Origin: Escherichia phage dw-ec
Sequence record: OL739525.1
Strand: one strand, 5' to 3'
Length of the DNA stretch: 64,000 nt
Position numbers and translations under genes: made by a program. The notes below the pieces were generated by a model. The model saw nothing but the letters and a program-made list of their open reading frames with translations. It did not search any database and was not told the DNA's origin. Shown in pieces: positions 14,667-26,225 of this stretch; position 1 is the first letter of the stretch; each line of letters opens with the position of its first letter.

Positions 14667-15794
14667 TTATTCTGCTGGTTCCCAAGTGCCTGGGATCATT
14701 TCTCGAATACGAACACCAACAGGTTTTGTTGGAATACCTTCATCTGAAAATTCTTCATACTCTATTTCAACGAACTGATTAATCAAGGTAGAAGCATTCT
14801 CTGCTTTACGATAATTGATAGTCTCATGAGCATCTTTACGCATTAAGAATTCGACTACTTTACCATTTTCCATCTCACCTGTCAACACTCCATCACCATT
14901 TTTATCACTTTTTGAATTTGTTACTTTAACTTCAAGGGTGTGGCGAGGCTTACGTTTAATAACGTCATAAGAACGTTTATCAAATTCGTAAACTCCGTGA
15001 GCATTACGATATACTACACCTTCAGCTTTCTCAAGTAAAGCTTTTTCATAGAAAGCATCAAACTGTTCTTGGTTTTCAATATACTCTGTATGAACTACAC
15101 AAATAAGCTCGTCAAGACCATAATCTTCAACTACTGCCTTAAGAGCAGTAAGAACATCAACACGTTTTTCAAACGGTAGATCTGGAACTGGAATATCGTA
15201 TACGTAATAATTCAGCAAAGGTGTATTTGCATTATGCTTCTTCCAGGCACTGTTAATTTGTTGCAGACTAAGGACACCTAACCCAGCAAACACTTCACCA
15301 TCAAGAGGATGACCAACAACTTCACTAATAAAGTTTGGAATACCTTTCCAATGAGGTGGCAGGTTATACACTTCCCCAGCTTTTGATAAACACTCCCCTT
15401 TCATGTTAATCATAGAACGTAACCCGTTCAGTTTGTATTGTGCATAACCAGGGAACACAACCCTTTCAGGATAATCTTTATAATCCTGGCATTTCATTGG
15501 TGTAGAAGGAACATGGTTTTCAGCTTCTTCTTTTGTTTTATAATAGCCATTCTTTAACTGTTTTGTCCATTTGGCAAAAGCTTCAAGTTCAGCTTGTTCT
15601 TCTGGTGTTGTTTCATTGGAACGACCGATGTTTTTTGCTTCTGCTGTATAAGATTTTTCTGTGATTTTTCCACCTACCCTTCCATGAGCTACAGTAACAA
15701 CTGCACCATCTGTATACACTGTCCACTGTTTAAGTTTTCCTTTTGAATCTTTACCATACAGCGTTTGATTTGTTTGTTGCATTAGTCCTCCCAT
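14667..15794 (-). CDS. ATP-dependent DNA ligase
   Basis: KLNGLR adenylation motif (KxNG) with nucleotidyltransferase and OB-like C-terminal region; 375 aa. Confidence 0.8.
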   Translation of the reverse strand: MGGLMQQTNQTLYGKDSKGKLKQWTVYTDGAVVTVAHGRVGGKITEKSYTAEAKNIGRSNETTPEEQAELEAFAKWTKQLKNGYYKTKEEAENHVPSTPMKCQDYKDYPERVVFPGYAQYKLNGLRSMINMKGECLSKAGEVYNLPPHWKGIPNFISEVVGHPLDGEVFAGLGVLSLQQINSAWKKHNANTPLLNYYVYDIPVPDLPFEKRVDVLTALKAVVEDYGLDELICVVHTEYIENQEQFDAFYEKALLEKAEGVVYRNAHGVYEFDKRSYDVIKRKPRHTLEVKVTNSKSDKNGDGVLTGEMENGKVVEFLMRKDAHETINYRKAENASTLINQFVEIEYEEFSDEGIPTKPVGVRIREMIPGTWEPAE

Positions 15795-17875: not shown

Positions 17876-18427
17876 TTACTCTCCTTTGATTATTTTGTGA
17901 TGGTCTACAGTCACGATATCTCGTTTACTCATCATAGAAATTATCTCATCAAAATGCAAGATTTTTCCGTGTGCATCCCAACCCACATCTAACATTTTAC
18001 CATAAGCTTCATCAGGGAAAGATCCGTGGGAATGCCCGTGTAGCATGATTGATCCACGACCTTGTTTATTCCAGGAGGCAATAGGGTAATGACTTAAGAC
18101 GAAGAACAGCTTCTGGTATTTCACTTCGTCATAATACACCACTTCGCCATACTCTGCAAGCACTTCTCGGTGCTTGCTGTAATCATGATTCCCAACAAGA
18201 TAAGTGATATCCCCTTGCAGACGGGAAGCAATCTTACGGGTATCTTCTTCAGTCCCGAAACAGAAGTCGCCCAAATGCCACATCTTAACACCAGGGGTAG
18301 TAGCACATTTGTTCCATGCTTCGATCAAGGCTTCTGTCATGTGGTCCATATCTTCCCACGGACGATATTCAGGAGCAAACTCTCGAATGCGTTTATGCAT
18401 AAAATGCAAATCGCTTGTAATAAACAT
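17876..18427 (-). CDS. calcineurin-like metallophosphoesterase
   Basis: SDLHFMH, LGDFCFG, GNHDY, HGHSHG metallophosphatase motifs; 183 aa. Confidence 0.7.
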   Translation of the reverse strand: MFITSDLHFMHKRIREFAPEYRPWEDMDHMTEALIEAWNKCATTPGVKMWHLGDFCFGTEEDTRKIASRLQGDITYLVGNHDYSKHREVLAEYGEVVYYDEVKYQKLFFVLSHYPIASWNKQGRGSIMLHGHSHGSFPDEAYGKMLDVGWDAHGKILHFDEIISMMSKRDIVTVDHHKIIKGE

Positions 18428-21840: not shown

Positions 21841-22040
21841 GTTGATGTAGTACTCTGTACTCCGTACTAGATTAATAATTATTAAATATTAATAATAAAT
21901 AATTATTAGATCTAACAAACAGGTACAGTGTATCAGAACTGGTACGTACAGATCAACTTCTATCAATTAAAAAAATAAAATAATAAATTATTATAAATAA
22001 TACTTGATCTATAGATCAGTATGAAGTACAGTACGTAACA
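21841..22040. repeat. AT-rich divergent control region with clustered GTAC-core repeats and short palindromes
   Basis: Eight GTAC cores in about 200 bp; palindromes TAGATCTA and TGATCTATAGATCA; long AT tracts; no ORFs. Confidence 0.5.
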
Positions 22041-22064
22041 TCTTAACAAGAATGGAGGTGTGCA

Positions 22065-22250
22065 ATGATTAGTGAGAATCCGTGCAAATGGCATCATGTG
22101 CCTATTAAAGATTGTATGTCTTGTAATCCACGTTCTATTTATAACATTGCATCTTATGATGATGACAATGTGTTAGACGATGATGAAGGCTGGGAGGATT
22201 TGGATTGGACTGGTTATGAAACCAAAAAGGATAAAATTATTCCTAGTTGA
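22065..22250 (+). CDS. hypothetical Cys/His-containing small protein (61 aa)
   Basis: GGAGG RBS; first rightward gene. Confidence 0.45.
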   Translation: MISENPCKWHHVPIKDCMSCNPRSIYNIASYDDDNVLDDDEGWEDLDWTGYETKKDKIIPS

Positions 22251-22287
22251 CTTAAGATATCCTTCGTGCTAAACTAGAAGTGAGGAG

Positions 22288-22539
22288 ATGCCGATCACTC
22301 CCCATTTGGGGTTCGAAGGATATATGCAAAATAGCTTTTATTTTAGGTGCCGTGCTTGTAATAGGCATTTGACAAACCACTCCAGACGTGATAAAAATGG
22401 AGTCATCAAGGAATCAGACCTCTGTTCTATTTGCACAGGTTTGGCTTTTGATGATAGTCCCGAAAGGGTTTATCAGCATCAATGTATAACAGACGTTCTC
22501 GTGTCAAACTTGGTAGAGGACGAACAACTAACAGATTAG
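22288..22539 (+). CDS. hypothetical zinc-finger-like protein (83 aa)
   Basis: GAGGAG RBS; CRACN...CSIC Cys pairs. Confidence 0.45.
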   Translation: MPITPHLGFEGYMQNSFYFRCRACNRHLTNHSRRDKNGVIKESDLCSICTGLAFDDSPERVYQHQCITDVLVSNLVEDEQLTD

Positions 22540-22547
22540 GAGGAACA

Positions 22548-22796
22548 ATGTCTCTATTAGAAAAACACGTGTTTGAAGATGGTAACGGCAATGCAGTTTT
22601 TCTTTTCCATCCAGAAAAATACACATCTGAAAACAATGGTACAACTTCTATTGTAATCACTAAAGATGTTAAAGTTATTGATTTCTTGGCTCTGATGCGA
22701 GAGATGGATCTTGAAATTAATACTTTTAACGCAGAAGCTTTGGTTGTTGCTCTTCTGGAAAAGAAAGATAGTGAAGAAGTAGCAGAATATGCTTAA
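22548..22796 (+). CDS. hypothetical protein (about 82 aa)
   Basis: Track ORF 22482..22796 trimmed to ATG after AGGAGG RBS. Confidence 0.45.
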   Translation: MSLLEKHVFEDGNGNAVFLFHPEKYTSENNGTTSIVITKDVKVIDFLALMREMDLEINTFNAEALVVALLEKKDSEEVAEYA

Positions 22797-22803
22797 ATAA
22801 CTA

Positions 22804-22833
22804 TTGACAAACGTATCCTTCATATGTTAGGAT
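22804..22833 (+). promoter_or_regulatory. sigma70-like promoter P1 of tRNA array (CTATTGACAA ... TGtTAGGAT) with 10-bp inverted repeat
   Basis: TTGACA, 18-bp spacer, extended -10; AACGTATCCT / AGGATACGTT inverted repeat spans spacer and -10. Confidence 0.5.
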
Positions 22834-23042
22834 ACGTTCATCAAGTGTGGTAACAGGGTCGTTGACTTTTGTTAAGAGGGGCTTGCACTGCGGTAGTGTT
22901 AGAGACTACTTCTTCAGAGGTTAGCTACCAAAGAGGAAAAGGAATAGTCTCGGCTCAAGAACTTTTACGCTGAAAGTTGGGCTTGGTCTTAGAGAATGTA
23001 GCGGTTCTCTACAATCGTCAGCGTCTCTGTTACCACATTTAT

Positions 23043-23117
23043 GGCCCTGTAGCTCAATGGGAGAGCTGTCGGCTCATAACCGATAGGTAGCTGGATCGAA
23101 ACCAGCCAGGGCCACCA
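23043..23117 (+). tRNA. tRNA with CAT anticodon (Met or lysidine-type Ile2)
   Basis: Cloverleaf folds by hand: GGCCCTG/CAGGGCC acceptor, anticodon loop CTCATAA, CCA encoded. Confidence 0.75.
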
Positions 23118-23119
23118 AC

Positions 23120-23194
23120 GTCTTTATGGTGTAATGGATAGCACAGGAGTCTTCTAAACTCTTAGTCAAGGTTCGATTCCTTGTAAAGACACCA
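23120..23194 (+). tRNA. tRNA-Arg (TCT)
   Basis: 7-bp acceptor, anticodon loop CTTCTAA, T-arm CAAGG-TTCGATT-CCTTG, CCA encoded. Confidence 0.8.
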
Positions 23195-23390
23195 GAACAT
23201 TTTAACATGAATTAGCTCAAGTGATTTGAACCCACTACTGATCATGGTGGCAGAGAATGAGGCAAGTATGTCAGACATTATAAACAAAGGCCACGGTTAT
23301 ATTAGAAGACATAAATGCTCGAAGAGCACCGTTCGTTGAGAACGGGGGTTGGTGGAGTCACCATTCATGGTAAAATGTTTTAAAAAACTA

Positions 23391-23420
23391 TTGACAACTA
23401 ACATTATTTTATGTTAGATT
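23391..23420 (+). promoter_or_regulatory. sigma70-like promoter P2 inside tRNA array (CTATTGACAA ... TGtTAGATT)
   Basis: TTGACA, 18-bp spacer, extended -10; CTAACAT/ATGTTAG inverted repeat. Confidence 0.5.
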
Positions 23421-23428
23421 ATAAGTAT

Positions 23429-23519
23429 GGAAGGGCAAATCGATGTGGCGACGAAAACGGTCTTGAAAACCGCCGAGCTTGAAAGAGCCTTGGGAGTTCG
23501 ACTCTCCCTCCTTCCGCCA
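23429..23519 (+). tRNA. tRNA-Ser (TGA), class II
   Basis: Anticodon loop CTTGAAA, long variable arm, T-arm GGGAG-TTCGACT-CTCCC, CCA encoded. Confidence 0.8.
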
Positions 23520-23524
23520 GATTA

Positions 23525-23610
23525 GGTAGATTGGTGAAATGGTAGCCACAACAGTTTGCTAAACTGTAGTCGGAAACGGCGTGTAGGTTCGAGTCCTACA
23601 TCTACCGCCA
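23525..23610 (+). tRNA. tRNA-Ser (GCT), class II
   Basis: GGTAGAT/ATCTACC acceptor, anticodon loop TTGCTAA, long variable arm, CCA encoded. Confidence 0.8.
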
Positions 23611-23740
23611 AGTTCTTTTTAATATAGCTTACTTTAATAGAGTAAACTTTCGGCAGATGGCCTCCACCATCTTACCGATAACTCATAGTTAGTGGTGTGA
23701 ACACTGGCTATTTTAAAAAGAATTTAAATATTAGTATTTA

Positions 23741-23828
23741 GGTGAGTTAATTCCGTAGGGGTAGCGGGGCAGACTGTAAATCTGTTATCATTGCGATTCG
23801 GGTGGTTCGACTCCATCACTCACCACCA
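23741..23828 (+). tRNA. tRNA-Tyr (GTA), class II
   Basis: GGTGAGT/ACTCACC acceptor, anticodon loop CTGTAAA, long variable arm, CCA encoded. Confidence 0.8.
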
Positions 23829-23834
23829 AATTAA

Positions 23835-23920
23835 GATGAGTTGGCTGAATGGTTTAAGCGGCGGACTGTTAATCCGTGTTCGAAAGAACGATATAGGTTC
23901 AAATCCTATACTCATCGCCA
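23835..23920 (+). tRNA. class II tRNA with apparent GTT (Asn-type) anticodon; isotype uncertain
   Basis: Good acceptor and T-arm, 15-nt variable arm, anticodon stem GCGGA/TCCGT with loop CTGTTAA; class II architecture with an Asn anticodon is non-canonical. Confidence 0.55.
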
Positions 23921-23927
23921 GAATTAT

Positions 23928-24004
23928 GGACTTGTAGAGTTAAGGTAAACCCCCAGTCGCCAAGAGGCTTCTGGAATTGCAGGTATCGAATCCTGCCGAG
24001 TCCC
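23928..24004 (+). pseudogene. degenerate tRNA-like element
   Basis: Acceptor pairing GGACTTG/CGAGTCC and T-arm-like GCAGG-TATCGAAT-CCTGC (8-nt loop), but no canonical anticodon arm could be folded. Confidence 0.35.
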
Positions 24005-24010
24005 AGTTTT

Positions 24011-24085
24011 GCTCCTATAGTATAATGGCTATTACAACGGTTTTGTAATCCGTGGATCTCTGTTCGATTCAGAGTGGGAGCACCA
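24011..24085 (+). tRNA. tRNA-Thr (TGT)
   Basis: GCTCCTA/TGGGAGC acceptor, anticodon loop TTTGTAA (one non-WC pair closing the stem), CCA encoded. Confidence 0.7.
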
Positions 24086-24358
24086 ACATAACATTAAGAG
24101 CACTGTGATTGATCGTCGTATCCTGTGCACAAGGTCTGCTCGAAAGACAGTGTTCTTAGTATTGTGTTGATCACACAAAGAGTTACCTGAAACTTGACCG
24201 GAGTAGGGTTGGATGGGGCAAAAGAAGAAGCGGCTCTCCCATCGACAGCAACGAAGAATAATATTTGACTTTGGTTTTGTATTATTTTAAGTTAGCTTAC
24301 CGAACGTAGGGCTAGTCACCCAATGGGATACTCGTCACTGTCCCACTCAATAAAACTA

Positions 24359-24388
24359 TTGACAACCAATAGTAAAATGTAGTATAGT
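24359..24388 (+). promoter_or_regulatory. sigma70-like promoter P3 inside tRNA array (CTATTGACAA-18-TATAGT)
   Basis: Consensus hexamers about 10 nt upstream of tRNA-Gly. Confidence 0.5.
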
Positions 24389-24399
24389 AAAGATGTAGG

Positions 24400-24473
24400 G
24401 CGTTCTTGGTGTAGCGGTAGCATTCCGTCCTTCCAAGTCGGCGGCACGAGTTCGATCCTCGTAGAACGCTCCA
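24400..24473 (+). tRNA. tRNA-Gly (TCC)
   Basis: Anticodon loop CTTCCAA, T-arm ACGAG-TTCGATC-CTCGT, CCA encoded. Confidence 0.75.
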
Positions 24474-24571
24474 AATTATTTAATAAAGGGTTGCCAGAAA
24501 ACTTTCTCTTTTACTCATGGTTTTCTCCTTCTCTCACACCTCTTCTGGTTGCCCTTCATTAAATGATTTAT

Positions 24572-24647
24572 TGGTTTGTAGTGTAGTCCGGTAGCACACG
24601 ACACTTTGACTGTCGTAGGTTTGGTTCAAATCCAGACAGACCAGCCA
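24572..24647 (+). tRNA. tRNA-Gln (TTG)
   Basis: TGGTTTG/CAGACCA acceptor, anticodon stem CGACA/TGTCG with loop CTTTGAC, CCA encoded. Confidence 0.75.
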
Positions 24648-24652
24648 TATAA

Positions 24653-24729
24653 CGGAATTTAGCTCAGTTTGGTAGAGCATACGCTTTGGGAGCGTAGGGT
24701 CGCAGGTTCGAATCCTGCAATTCCGACCA
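24653..24729 (+). tRNA. tRNA-Pro (TGG)
   Basis: CGGAATT/AATTCCG acceptor, anticodon loop TTTGGGA, T-arm GCAGG-TTCGAAT-CCTGC, CCA encoded. Confidence 0.85.
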
Positions 24730-24735
24730 ATCAAA

Positions 24736-24809
24736 TGTTTCGTAGTTCAATGGTAGAACCCACGACTGATAATCGTGAGACACAAGTTCGATTCTTGTCG
24801 AAACAACCA
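24736..24809 (+). tRNA. tRNA-Ile (GAT)
   Basis: TGTTTCG/CGAAACA acceptor, anticodon stem CACGA/TCGTG with loop CTGATAA, CCA encoded. Confidence 0.8.
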
Positions 24810-24811
24810 GT

Positions 24812-24881
24812 TTCCCGTTAGACTTACAGGATAAGAGTTCCACAACTTATTGTGATGCTGGTTCGAATCCAGCACGGGATA
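24812..24881 (+). pseudogene. tRNA-like element with aberrant anticodon arm
   Basis: Canonical T-arm GCTGG-TTCGAAT-CCAGC and acceptor (1-72 mismatch), but anticodon region folds only as a 4-bp stem with 6-nt loop ACTTAT; 70 nt, no CCA. Confidence 0.4.
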
Positions 24882-24887
24882 CATAAT

Positions 24888-24966
24888 AGCGGGATAGAGG
24901 AGTCTGGTCGTCCTCGCCAGTTTCATATGCTGGAGATCATCGGTTCAAATCCGATTCCCGCCTCCA
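24888..24966 (+). tRNA. tRNA-Met (CAT), second CAT-anticodon tRNA
   Basis: Anticodon stem CCAGT/GCTGG with loop TTCATAT, T-arm ATCGG-TTCAAAT-CCGAT, CCA encoded; A1-C72 mismatch at top of acceptor. Confidence 0.65.
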
Positions 24967-25081
24967 AATATCGCTTGCCAGCGGTATCTTTGAAGACCTT
25001 GCCTGGTTCCTTCTAAGATGGAGGGGTGCGACTCCTTAACGCACAATTATAATAAAGCATTTCAAATTAACAGTATTTATT

Positions 25082-25104
25082 AGCCTCCTTATTGGAGGCT
25101 TTTT
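25082..25104 (+). terminator. intrinsic terminator closing the tRNA array
   Basis: AGCCTCC-loop-GGAGGCT hairpin followed by TTTTT. Confidence 0.6.
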
Positions 25105-25123
25105 GCTATCTATTGAATAAAAC

Positions 25124-25152
25124 TTGACTTATTATTTTTTATATGTTAAGAT
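25124..25152 (+). promoter_or_regulatory. sigma70-like promoter (TTGACT-17-TGtTAAGAT)
   Basis: Hexamers upstream of the 25174 gene; shares TATGTTA motif with array promoters. Confidence 0.45.
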
Positions 25153-25173
25153 AAAGTTTAGGAGGATTTTATT

Positions 25174-25470
25174 ATGCCTAAACTAAAACGTGGTCGTGGA
25201 AGACCAACAGCCGAAATGCAACAGATCTACGCAATGGATGCGGCGCAAGCAAGTGTAAAAGAATTATTTGCAGAGCATTATTTAGAAGCTATGCGATATA
25301 TTGTTGAACTTGTTAATGATAAGGATGCAGCAAAACCTCTCCGCTTCCAAGCAGCTAAAGCTATTAAAGAGCAAGTAGAAGAATGGTTAGAAGAACATTA
25401 TGAAGCTATGGAAGAAGAAACCCCTGCCGTGCAGAATACAGATGACGTTCCTAAAAAGATCGTAATCTAA
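25174..25470 (+). CDS. hypothetical DNA-binding protein (KRGRGRP motif); small-terminase candidate
   Basis: N-terminal basic AT-hook-like KRGRGRPT; AGGAGG RBS; upstream of terminase region. Confidence 0.35.
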   Translation: MPKLKRGRGRPTAEMQQIYAMDAAQASVKELFAEHYLEAMRYIVELVNDKDAAKPLRFQAAKAIKEQVEEWLEEHYEAMEEETPAVQNTDDVPKKIVI

Positions 25471-25485
25471 TCCCTCTCCTCTCTT

Positions 25486-25550
25486 GGGGCTTTGCCCCTC
25501 CTCCTTGTTATTTTTAACACCCCTCTCCGAAAGGTTAGGGGCTTTTTTTA
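25486..25550 (+). terminator. tandem intrinsic terminator hairpins
   Basis: GGGGC-TTT-GCCCC then CCCCT...AGGGG hairpin followed by CTTTTTTTATTTTT. Confidence 0.5.
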
Positions 25551-25560
25551 TTTTTAATGC

Positions 25561-25590
25561 TTGCAATTGTATATCATTTTGTGATAAGAT
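25561..25590 (+). promoter_or_regulatory. sigma70-like promoter (TTGCAA-18-TGaTAAGAT)
   Basis: Hexamers upstream of GAGGAGGA RBS and ATG at 25612. Confidence 0.45.
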
Positions 25591-25611
25591 CAGATATGAG
25601 GAGGATAAAAT

Positions 25612-25782
25612 ATGCGCAATTTTGTAGTTAAAAATGATTTTAACCGTTCTTCTTATCATAAAGATAAAAAGAATGATTACACACGGGTTTGGAACTTGGA
25701 GGAAGAACTTTATGATGACAGAGAAGACTTGGGAAGAGATCCTAGCGGAGGCTCAACCAATGGAAGTGAAGAAGATAGTTAA
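25612..25782 (+). CDS. small hypothetical acidic protein (56 aa, not in ORF track)
   Basis: ATG 7 nt after GAGGAGGA RBS; overlaps track ORF 25634..25849 in another frame. Confidence 0.3.
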   Translation: MRNFVVKNDFNRSSYHKDKKNDYTRVWNLEEELYDDREDLGRDPSGGSTNGSEEDS

Positions 25783-25832
25783 CAACGCCCCTTCTCTTCC
25801 TAAAATAAAATTTTATGAGGAAGTAGAAGATA

Positions 25833-26225
25833 ATGAATCTAAAGACTAAAACTGTATTAAGTTTTGTTTTAATTGTTGTTCTTATTCTTGCCGGAATGTT
25901 TGCTTATAACAAGATACGTGAGTCTGGTTACAAAGATGGTGTTGCCTATCAAACGCAAGTATATCAAGCAGCCCAAGCAAAAGCAAAACAAGATTTCGAT
26001 GTTCTTCAAAAAAGAGCGGATGAAGAAAGAGCATTATTAAATACTCAAATAAACAACTTGTCTAAAAACAATGCACAATTAAAAGCAGATTTAGAGAAGA
26101 AGAAACAAACGATCAATGAGGATACAACGAATTATGCAAAAACTAATTCTGGCAGTATGTCTTGCTTTGCCCCTAATGATGACGGGTTGTTCATCATCAA
26201 CAAAAGTTTCCCCAGTTCTTATTGA
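25833..26225 (+). CDS. i-spanin-like protein (N-terminal TM helix plus coiled coil)
   Basis: TM helix VLSFVLIVVLILAGMFAY followed by Ala/Gln/Lys-rich helical region; 130 aa. Confidence 0.45.
   Translation: MNLKTKTVLSFVLIVVLILAGMFAYNKIRESGYKDGVAYQTQVYQAAQAKAKQDFDVLQKRADEERALLNTQINNLSKNNAQLKADLEKKKQTINEDTTNYAKTNSGSMSCFAPNDDGLFIINKSFPSSY

Follow-up and report, generated by a model that had tools for sequence, protein, structure and literature searches.

Phage tRNA arrays are now viewed as tools of counter-defence as well as of codon supply, and the array of Escherichia phage dw-ec raises the question of what is encoded at positions 23928-24004, where a sequence with the ends of a tRNA lies between two tRNA genes. 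The window, meaning the whole stretch of 64,000 nucleotides that was analysed (record OL739525.1), carries a Phapecoctavirus (phAPEC8-like) tRNA array, and the 1-kb region round the element is 97-99.4% identical to Phapecoctavirus genomes. These phAPEC8-like phages, which belong to the Stephanstirmvirinae, are myoviruses of E. coli with genomes of ~150 kb. A first-pass annotation had described the element as a degenerate tRNA. Our analysis indicates that it is very probably an unannotated Phapecoctavirus copy of RNA3, the RNA annotated in T5 and BF23, and that it does not decode; RNA3 as a kind was known before, but as annotation only.

On the plus strand, 23928-24003 contains a 7-bp acceptor stem and a 5-bp T stem with an 8-nt loop, without a 5-bp/7-nt anticodon arm. 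Its parts are as follows.

23928-23934, plus strand: 5' strand of the acceptor stem, GGACUUG, pairing 7/7 with 23997-24003, one pair being a U-G wobble.
23935-23952, plus strand: D-region, UAGAGUUAAGGUAAACCC, with a tRNA-like start (U8 A9 G10) and a GG, without a canonical D stem.
23953-23974, plus strand: hairpin replacing the anticodon arm, CCAG-UC-GCC-AAGA-GGC-UU-CUGG (22 nt: 4 bp, a 2x2 internal loop, 3 bp and a 4-nt loop), in the MFE and centroid folds.
23975-23978, plus strand: variable-loop equivalent, AAUU; AUU stands before the T stem in all three clades of the family.
23979-23996, plus strand: T arm, GCAGG / UAUCGAAU / CCUGC, with 5 bp (23979-23983 with 23992-23996) and an 8-nt loop (23984-23991).
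23997-24004, plus strand: 3' strand of the acceptor stem, CGAGUCC (23997-24003), and the C at the discriminator position, by direct reading.

Both helical ends are as the first-pass annotation had drawn them: the complementarity GGACTTG / CGAGTCC yields seven pairs, and the T-arm-like GCAGG/CCTGC encloses one extra loop nucleotide. Its claim that no 5-bp/7-nt anticodon arm can form in the 44 nt separating the acceptor 5' strand from the T stem (23935-23978) was likewise borne out, as no 5-bp stem was found among all 5+7+5 registers in these 44 nt, and the best register reaches four of five pairs (CAGUC/GGCUU, loop GCCAAGA) without U33. An alternative anticodon arm of 4 bp with the 7-nt loop GCCAAGA was rejected, being neither conserved nor thermodynamically competitive, and so was a canonical D stem of 4 bp, which has two central mismatches in every family member. 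At the 3' end no CCA is encoded; AGUUUU comes next after CGAGUCC-C. The MFE fold is a three-way junction of the acceptor stem, the 22-nt hairpin and the T arm, with residues 8-25 essentially unpaired, and at -27.6 kcal/mol it has a z-score of -3.6 against dinucleotide shuffles (0/200 were as stable). ARAGORN reported 10 tRNAs in the window, all within 23043-24966 on the plus strand, and the element is not among them. A cloverleaf was also sought by covariance search: Rfam 15 cmscan of 22000-26000 at E<=10 returned twelve tRNA-clan matches, none on the element, and no family, RF00005 included, matched 23928-24004.

The position of the element in the array is defined by three neighbouring features.

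23391-23420, plus strand: sigma-70-like promoter, TTGACA-18-TAGATT, TG extended, which would drive Ser-Ser-Tyr-Asn-element-Thr.
23835-23920, plus strand: upstream tRNA-Asn(GUU) with a long variable arm, from ARAGORN and Rfam, with synteny in muut, Lindwurm, T5 and BF23.
24011-24085, plus strand: downstream tRNA-Thr(UGU), from ARAGORN and Rfam.

The element starts 7 nt past the CCA of tRNA-Asn and ends 7 nt ahead of tRNA-Thr, and the spacers on both sides agree with the array-member slot between a class II tRNA and tRNA-Thr that had been proposed for it. A simple scan of the 64 kb for an acceptor stem with an adjacent T arm gave 11 hits, namely the 10 tRNAs and the element, all in the array and on the plus strand, while shuffled sequences gave a mean of 0.46 hits per 64 kb. 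One lone hit of this kind in the window is unremarkable; the in-phase array position gives it significance. The next sigma-70-like promoter after 23391-23420 is at 24359-24388, and the sole terminator-like site on the plus strand outside tRNA genes is at 25082-25100; because of these signals, the element is predicted to lie inside a polycistronic tRNA transcript. Rfam also gives weak matches to RyhB and MicA, below threshold, at 25053-25107 (plus strand); they overlie the strong intrinsic terminator that ends the array and are most likely just its hairpin.

The array is flanked downstream by terminase, portal and capsid genes, and upstream, on the other strand, by genes for an Rnl1-type RNA ligase (PF09511; 16942-17874), a metallophosphoesterase (17876-18427) and an ATP-dependent DNA ligase (14667-15794), which lie ~6 kb from the tRNAs. 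The Rnl1-type ligase suggests a capacity for tRNA repair and fits tRNA-directed host attack as a selective pressure on the phage.

The identity of the element was established through its homologs. In GenBank these are annotated as misc_RNA rna3, described in the BF23 record AJ604530 as 'RNA3, tRNA-like RNA with unknown functions' and in the T5 record AY543070 as 'RNA3, putative tRNA-like RNA'. A covariance model (R2) was built from ten distinct T5-like RNA3 sequences only, so that it is independent of the window. It matches 23928-24003 with 40.9 bits (E~1e-8; 67 kb searched, the window and L003, both strands) and the copy in Justusliebigvirus muut with 44.4 bits, against 18.2 bits for the best genuine tRNA and no more than 19.7 bits for non-family hits. 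BLAST with the element alone returned 87 Phapecoctavirus-type records, all at an identity of at least 95%, which bears out its presence in close relatives. A wider query, Tyr-Asn-element-Thr, aligned end to end with muut at 71%, and its Asn and element portion aligned as one piece with the Asn and RNA3 of the T5-like phage Lindwurm. After tRNA-Asn, the muut copy reads GUGCUUG-UAGAGUUAAUAGAAACC-UCUAGAAUUUUCUAGA-AUU-GUAGG-UAUCAAAU-CCUAC-CAAGCAA, and the Lindwurm copy UUCUGUG-UAGAGUUAAGUAAACC-GGUAGCCAACCAGCUAUC-AUU-GCUGA-UAUCGAAU-UCAGC-CACAGAU.

The element and the RNA3 of T5 and BF23, at ~65% identity, share the order UGUAGAGUUAA...AAACC, hairpin, AUU, 5-bp T stem and 8-nt loop YAUCGAAU, and both stand directly after tRNA-Asn on the same strand. 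They differ in that the middle hairpin of the element is longer and has an internal loop, in that its G1-C72 pair is a U-U mismatch in T5 and BF23, and in that it is followed by tRNA-Thr, whereas RNA3 of T5 and BF23 is followed by an ORF. The element also has no encoded ACCA, while T5-like copies end in ...CACAGAU-ACCA-UUUU; this is a real difference, but not one that defines homology.

With 87 records of the Phapecoctavirus type, 41 of the Justusliebigvirus (muut) type and 357 T5-like ones (~485 in total), the family is confined to these three phage clades in stem-filtered pattern scans of IMG/VR and metagenomes. Filtering mattered for this result: a first IMG/VR scan with the pattern GTAGAGTTAA..TATCRAAT yielded 120 stretches, nearly all chance or coding matches, and stem-filtered hits alone were kept. 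Tighter patterns, run on IMG/VR, metagenomes and bacterial genomes, brought up no fourth clade. Of 118 pattern matches in 185,579 bacterial species genomes, none had the family stems, and the sole bacterial hit that passed a loose filter (L296) was rejected, being without family resemblance. A BLAST search for homologs in 5,426 complete E. coli genomes, which does not extend to short complementarity, gave no match. Searched with model R1, the arrays of T2, the Vequintavirinae A73 and KpS8, Mooglevirus Sf16 and Novosibvirus PM135 yielded no member, although KpS8 and PM135 do possess a long-armed tRNA-Asn. Neither the element nor BF23 RNA3 matches an Rfam entry, nothing is annotated at the element in the Stephanstirmvirinae records inspected, and no functional study of the RNA3 family was found in the searchable literature on T5/BF23 RNA3, phage tRNA-like decoys and the T4 species 1/2 RNAs.

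What the copies share, and what they do not, points to the part of the molecule that may matter. The middle hairpin is unrelated between clades (UCUAGA-AUUU-UCUAGA in muut, GGUAGC-CAACCA-GCUAUC in T5), and its loops, 4-7 nt overall in homologs (AAGA, AUUU, CAACCA, CAAACCA), have no U33 or anticodon in common, which argues that the RNA is non-decoding. Whereas the stems and the hairpin vary freely, every Phapecoctavirus and Justusliebigvirus copy and nearly every T5-like one has the identical UAGAGUUAA and AAACC, with GGAU for GAGU in S147-type phages as the sole D-region variant, and all clades retain an 8-nt T loop, YAUYRAAU, which in most copies reads UAUCGAAU. Because of this contrast, the functional surface is most likely the elbow. 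At the end of the acceptor, the discriminator varies by clade (C in the element, A in muut, A in T5); with CCA absent here, no common end chemistry is evident at the DNA level.

The best explanation as a whole, which we hold with moderate confidence, is that this copy of RNA3 is a tRNA-shaped RNA of ~70-77 nt that would be co-transcribed with its neighbours, excised from the transcript and act in trans as a non-decoding tRNA body. The element would be transcribed together with the tRNAs from the promoter at ~23391-23420, and its RNA is predicted to fold into an L-shape that cannot present an anticodon. RNase P, acting at its own 5' end and at the 5' end of tRNA-Thr, together with 3' trimming would then excise it as it does the neighbours, and the cut at tRNA-Thr would, by the rules of E. 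coli tRNA processing, define a 3' trailer of 7 nt. An acceptor/T-arm minihelix is a substrate of RNase P, and E. coli trims CCA-less phage tRNA precursors and adds CCA to them, as established for T4. The excised RNA would act through its tRNA-shaped body, and the invariant D-region with the 8-nt T loop, forming the elbow, would be what a partner recognises, namely a tRNA-binding factor of host or phage origin which the RNA titrates or recruits.

More specific versions of this trans-acting reading are held less firmly. That the RNA is a mimic or decoy which titrates or recruits a factor that reads tRNA bodies is possible and is put forward tentatively. It is doubtful, though conceivable, that RNA3 copies are dedicated 'anticodon-less tRNA decoys' whose elbow binds and neutralises a host factor recognising tRNA bodies, carried as a cassette with tRNA-Asn between unrelated virulent phages; candidates for such a factor are a defence or toxin directed at tRNA that acts on the elbow or on the acceptor end, and an enzyme that processes or modifies tRNA. 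The varying hairpin loop argues against mimicry of one anticodon loop, and hence against a classical anticodon-nuclease decoy. On the other side, T5's own annotation says 'putative' for RNA3, a tblastn search of ten BF23 tRNA-region ORFs against the window for a shared protein partner gave nothing, and the only match to an antisense target of the conserved D-region within the window has 3 mismatches, which is at chance level. The D-region may be fixed only because an unusual fold that lacks a D stem requires it, and not because it binds a ligand. The tRNA-rich del-1 region of T5 tolerates large deletions in the laboratory (PMC12483538), which implies that any RNA3 function is conditional.

The constancy of the neighbouring gene bears on the main rival explanation. 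The element always lies 2-7 nt after tRNA-Asn (7 nt in the window, 4 nt in muut, 2 nt in T5, BF23 and Lindwurm), and the partner is one of two unrelated Asn genes, a type with a long variable arm in the window, muut, Lindwurm and many Epseptimavirus, and an ordinary class I type in T5, BF23, smaug and L115. According to the rival, the element is processing punctuation that works in cis: a minihelix recognisable by RNase P and RNase Z would place a cleavage site a few nt past the tRNA-Asn CCA, splitting this tRNA from the following mRNA in T5 and from tRNA-Thr here, and the excised RNA would have no task of its own. We regard this as rather unlikely, but it accounts for much: the element follows whichever of the two Asn types is present, in T5-like phages it separates tRNA-Asn from an ORF that has its own RBS, an acceptor and T arm are, as is established, what RNase P needs, and the stems and hairpin are free to vary. 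Yet a processing site needs neither 9+5 invariant unpaired bases in the D-region nor a conserved, non-standard 8-nt T loop, the other tRNA-ORF and tRNA-tRNA junctions of these arrays manage without such an element, and replacement of alleles at a single locus can account for its place next to Asn.

Exchange of this kind is visible in the relatives. Two element alleles, the muut type and the phAPEC8 type, circulate in Justusliebigvirus, and in arall, EC_OE_11 and W22 (L317, L318, L320; ~601-690) the base next to the CCA of a muut-type tRNA-Asn is already the first of a phAPEC8-type element, a sign that cassettes are exchanged within the array. That both partners are swapped as alleles while their adjacency is kept would be expected if the two are functionally coupled, but also if alleles are simply replaced at a single locus. 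Between the three clades, the Asn and RNA3 module has probably moved by horizontal transfer.

The partner tRNA-Asn(GUU) at 23835-23920 (plus strand) is itself unusual for a tRNA-Asn, in that its variable arm is long and class-II-like (GUUC-GAAA-GAAC), its D stem has 3 bp and its discriminator is G. Long-armed tRNA-Asn genes also occur at L003 1567-1650, L004 986-1068, L174 1501-1582 and L175 ~1511-1594, and are common to the Stephanstirmvirinae, many T5-like phages, a Mydovirus and a Novosibvirus; T5 and BF23 have an ordinary class I tRNA-Asn at the corresponding locus.

If the element were instead a decaying tRNA pseudogene, once an array member and now drifting after the loss of its anticodon arm, it should show a loss of structural constraint and be absent or variable in relatives. 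Pairing was scored for the 12 acceptor and T-stem pairs on a three-clade alignment of 12 sequences (A2); the middle hairpin, which MAFFT places out of register between clades, was judged per clade and within the T5-like phages, not on this alignment. Standard pairs fill 93.1% of the cells of these 12 pairs, compared with 27-42% when the 3' partner is slid by 1-3 columns, and eight of the 12 change on both sides across clades (4/7 in the acceptor, 4/5 in the T stem). Within the T5-like phages alone (A3), all 17 pairs, middle hairpin included, are 98.8% paired and three are compensatory: two hairpin pairs (G-C to A-U and U-A to C-G; L115) and one T-stem pair (G-C to A-U). When sequences of the three clades were folded independently, four of five family members gave a common three-way junction by MFE, with z-scores of -2.8 to -3.6, the MFE of the T5-like variant L115 pairing differently from the other family folds. 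Among 21 distinct variants, substitutions fall in loops and junctions or preserve pairing, except for four single mismatches at terminal or isolated pairs. Since there are only three clades, and the module probably moved horizontally, the independent compensatory events are few.

These data suggest that the three-helix structure is under selection and that the anticodon-less state is what the family has conserved and no sign of recent decay. The first-pass label 'degenerate' does not hold up, given compensatory changes in the helices of a recognisable RNA3 family and a divergence similar to that of the neighbouring real tRNAs (between-clade identity of 64-67% for the element, against 65-80% for tRNA-Tyr, tRNA-Asn and tRNA-Thr of the same genomes). 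The pseudogene reading, which has become very unlikely, could draw on the silence of ARAGORN and the Rfam tRNA model, on the lack of a D stem, the 8-nt T loop and, in the Phapecoctavirus clade, the missing CCA, as well as on one genome with a 45-nt internal tandem duplication of the element; against it stand an anticodon-less architecture kept in three clades and ~485 genome records, compensatory changes in all three helices with 93-99% of stem cells paired, and within-clade substitutions that spare the pairing, and the covariation already largely refutes it. The duplication, in MirsaeidiM_Esher1 (L321 560-680), repeats UAGAGUU...GGAAUUG, lies between the acceptor 5' strand and the T arm and is accompanied by a differing downstream sequence and tRNA-Thr allele; it could be a real variant or an assembly artefact.

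A working adaptor, charged by an anticodon-blind synthetase and used in translation or non-ribosomal transfer, is highly improbable: T5-like copies do encode a discriminator A and CCA (ACCA), and E. coli could add CCA to a CCA-less precursor, but the copies share no identity set (no G3-U70, no long variable arm, discriminator C here against A in T5 and muut), position 1-72 is mismatched in two clades, the loops hold no conserved anticodon and no CCA is encoded here. The remaining probability belongs to a function not yet imagined.

Comparison with other tRNA-like RNAs sets the family apart. Like canonical tRNA (RF00005), the element has a 7-bp acceptor, the U8 A9 G10 start, a 5-bp T stem with the UCGAA core, and array position and spacing, but it lacks a D stem and a 7-nt anticodon loop and has an 8-nt T loop and a 3-4-nt variable region. 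In architecture only, it resembles the tRNA-like domain of tmRNA, in which likewise the D loop next to the acceptor and T arm forms no stem and a helix takes the place of the anticodon arm; unlike tmRNA, it has no mRNA-like domain or pseudoknots, no encoded CCA, and A3-U70 (element positions 3 and 74) instead of G3-U70. ARAGORN found no tmRNA in the window, and no Rfam tmRNA match falls on the element. The tRNA-like module of YrlA and bacterial Y RNA, and mascRNA, are non-decoding tRNA mimics that are processed or modified by tRNA enzymes; the element differs from them in having no Ro-binding helix, and no Rfam match to them covers it, their weak hits falling on real tRNAs.

Small RNAs without an assigned function also lie among phage tRNA genes, such as T5 RNA2 ('tRNA-like stable RNA'), RNAIV and RNA 2H, some of which have acceptor or T-arm parts, and the T4 species 1/2 RNAs (rnaC, rnaD) are further non-tRNA RNAs of phage tRNA clusters. 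RNA2, RNAIV and RNA 2H bear no sequence relationship to the element: R1 gives no match, and blastn-short of the three against the window returned only T-arm-sized matches, of 12 nt (the element's own T arm) and 17 nt.

The comparison turns the 'putative' RNA3 of T5 into a structurally constrained family common to phAPEC8- and phi92-like phages, a conserved, non-decoding array member that is absent from Rfam and unannotated in the Stephanstirmvirinae records inspected, where family hits number 87 + 41 genomes. The comparative data can guide the design of mutants (D-region and T loop versus hairpin), and the covariance model is usable for annotation. Should the element prove to be merely a processing spacer, the result would be routine; a demonstrated role in trans would be of greater interest.

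Several further features of the array were observed. A second anticodon-less tRNA-like element lies at 24812-24880 (plus strand), between tRNA-Ile and tRNA-Met; its acceptor stem and D arm are accompanied by a T arm with the normal 7-nt loop (GCUGG-UUCGAAU-CCAGC) and by a stem at the anticodon position, CACAA/UUGUG, closed by the 4-nt CUUA. Both RNA3 models rank it second (23.6 and 19.7 bits), but its homology is not clear; by BLAST it occurs in Phapecoctavirus genomes and is 79% identical to a gene annotated as tRNA-Val in phage phiEB49. ARAGORN also misses two class II tRNA-like genes on the plus strand, 23429-23518 and 23741-23828. The latter (23741-23825) scores 39 bits on RF00005 and is annotated as tRNA-Tyr(GUA) in some relatives; for the former (23429-23515) the tRNA-Sec model alone gives a match, which stays below threshold (35.7 against 47 bits), and by eye the gene looks like tRNA-Ser(UGA) with an aberrant D arm, its fold being no better than that of shuffles (z = -0.24). 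Finally, the plus-strand array spacers 23195-23390, 23611-23740 and 24474-24571 are each predicted to fold into a domain that ends in a long terminal stem rich in A/U, such as GAACAUUUUA...UAAAAUGUUU, and may represent additional small RNAs or sites of RNase III-type processing.
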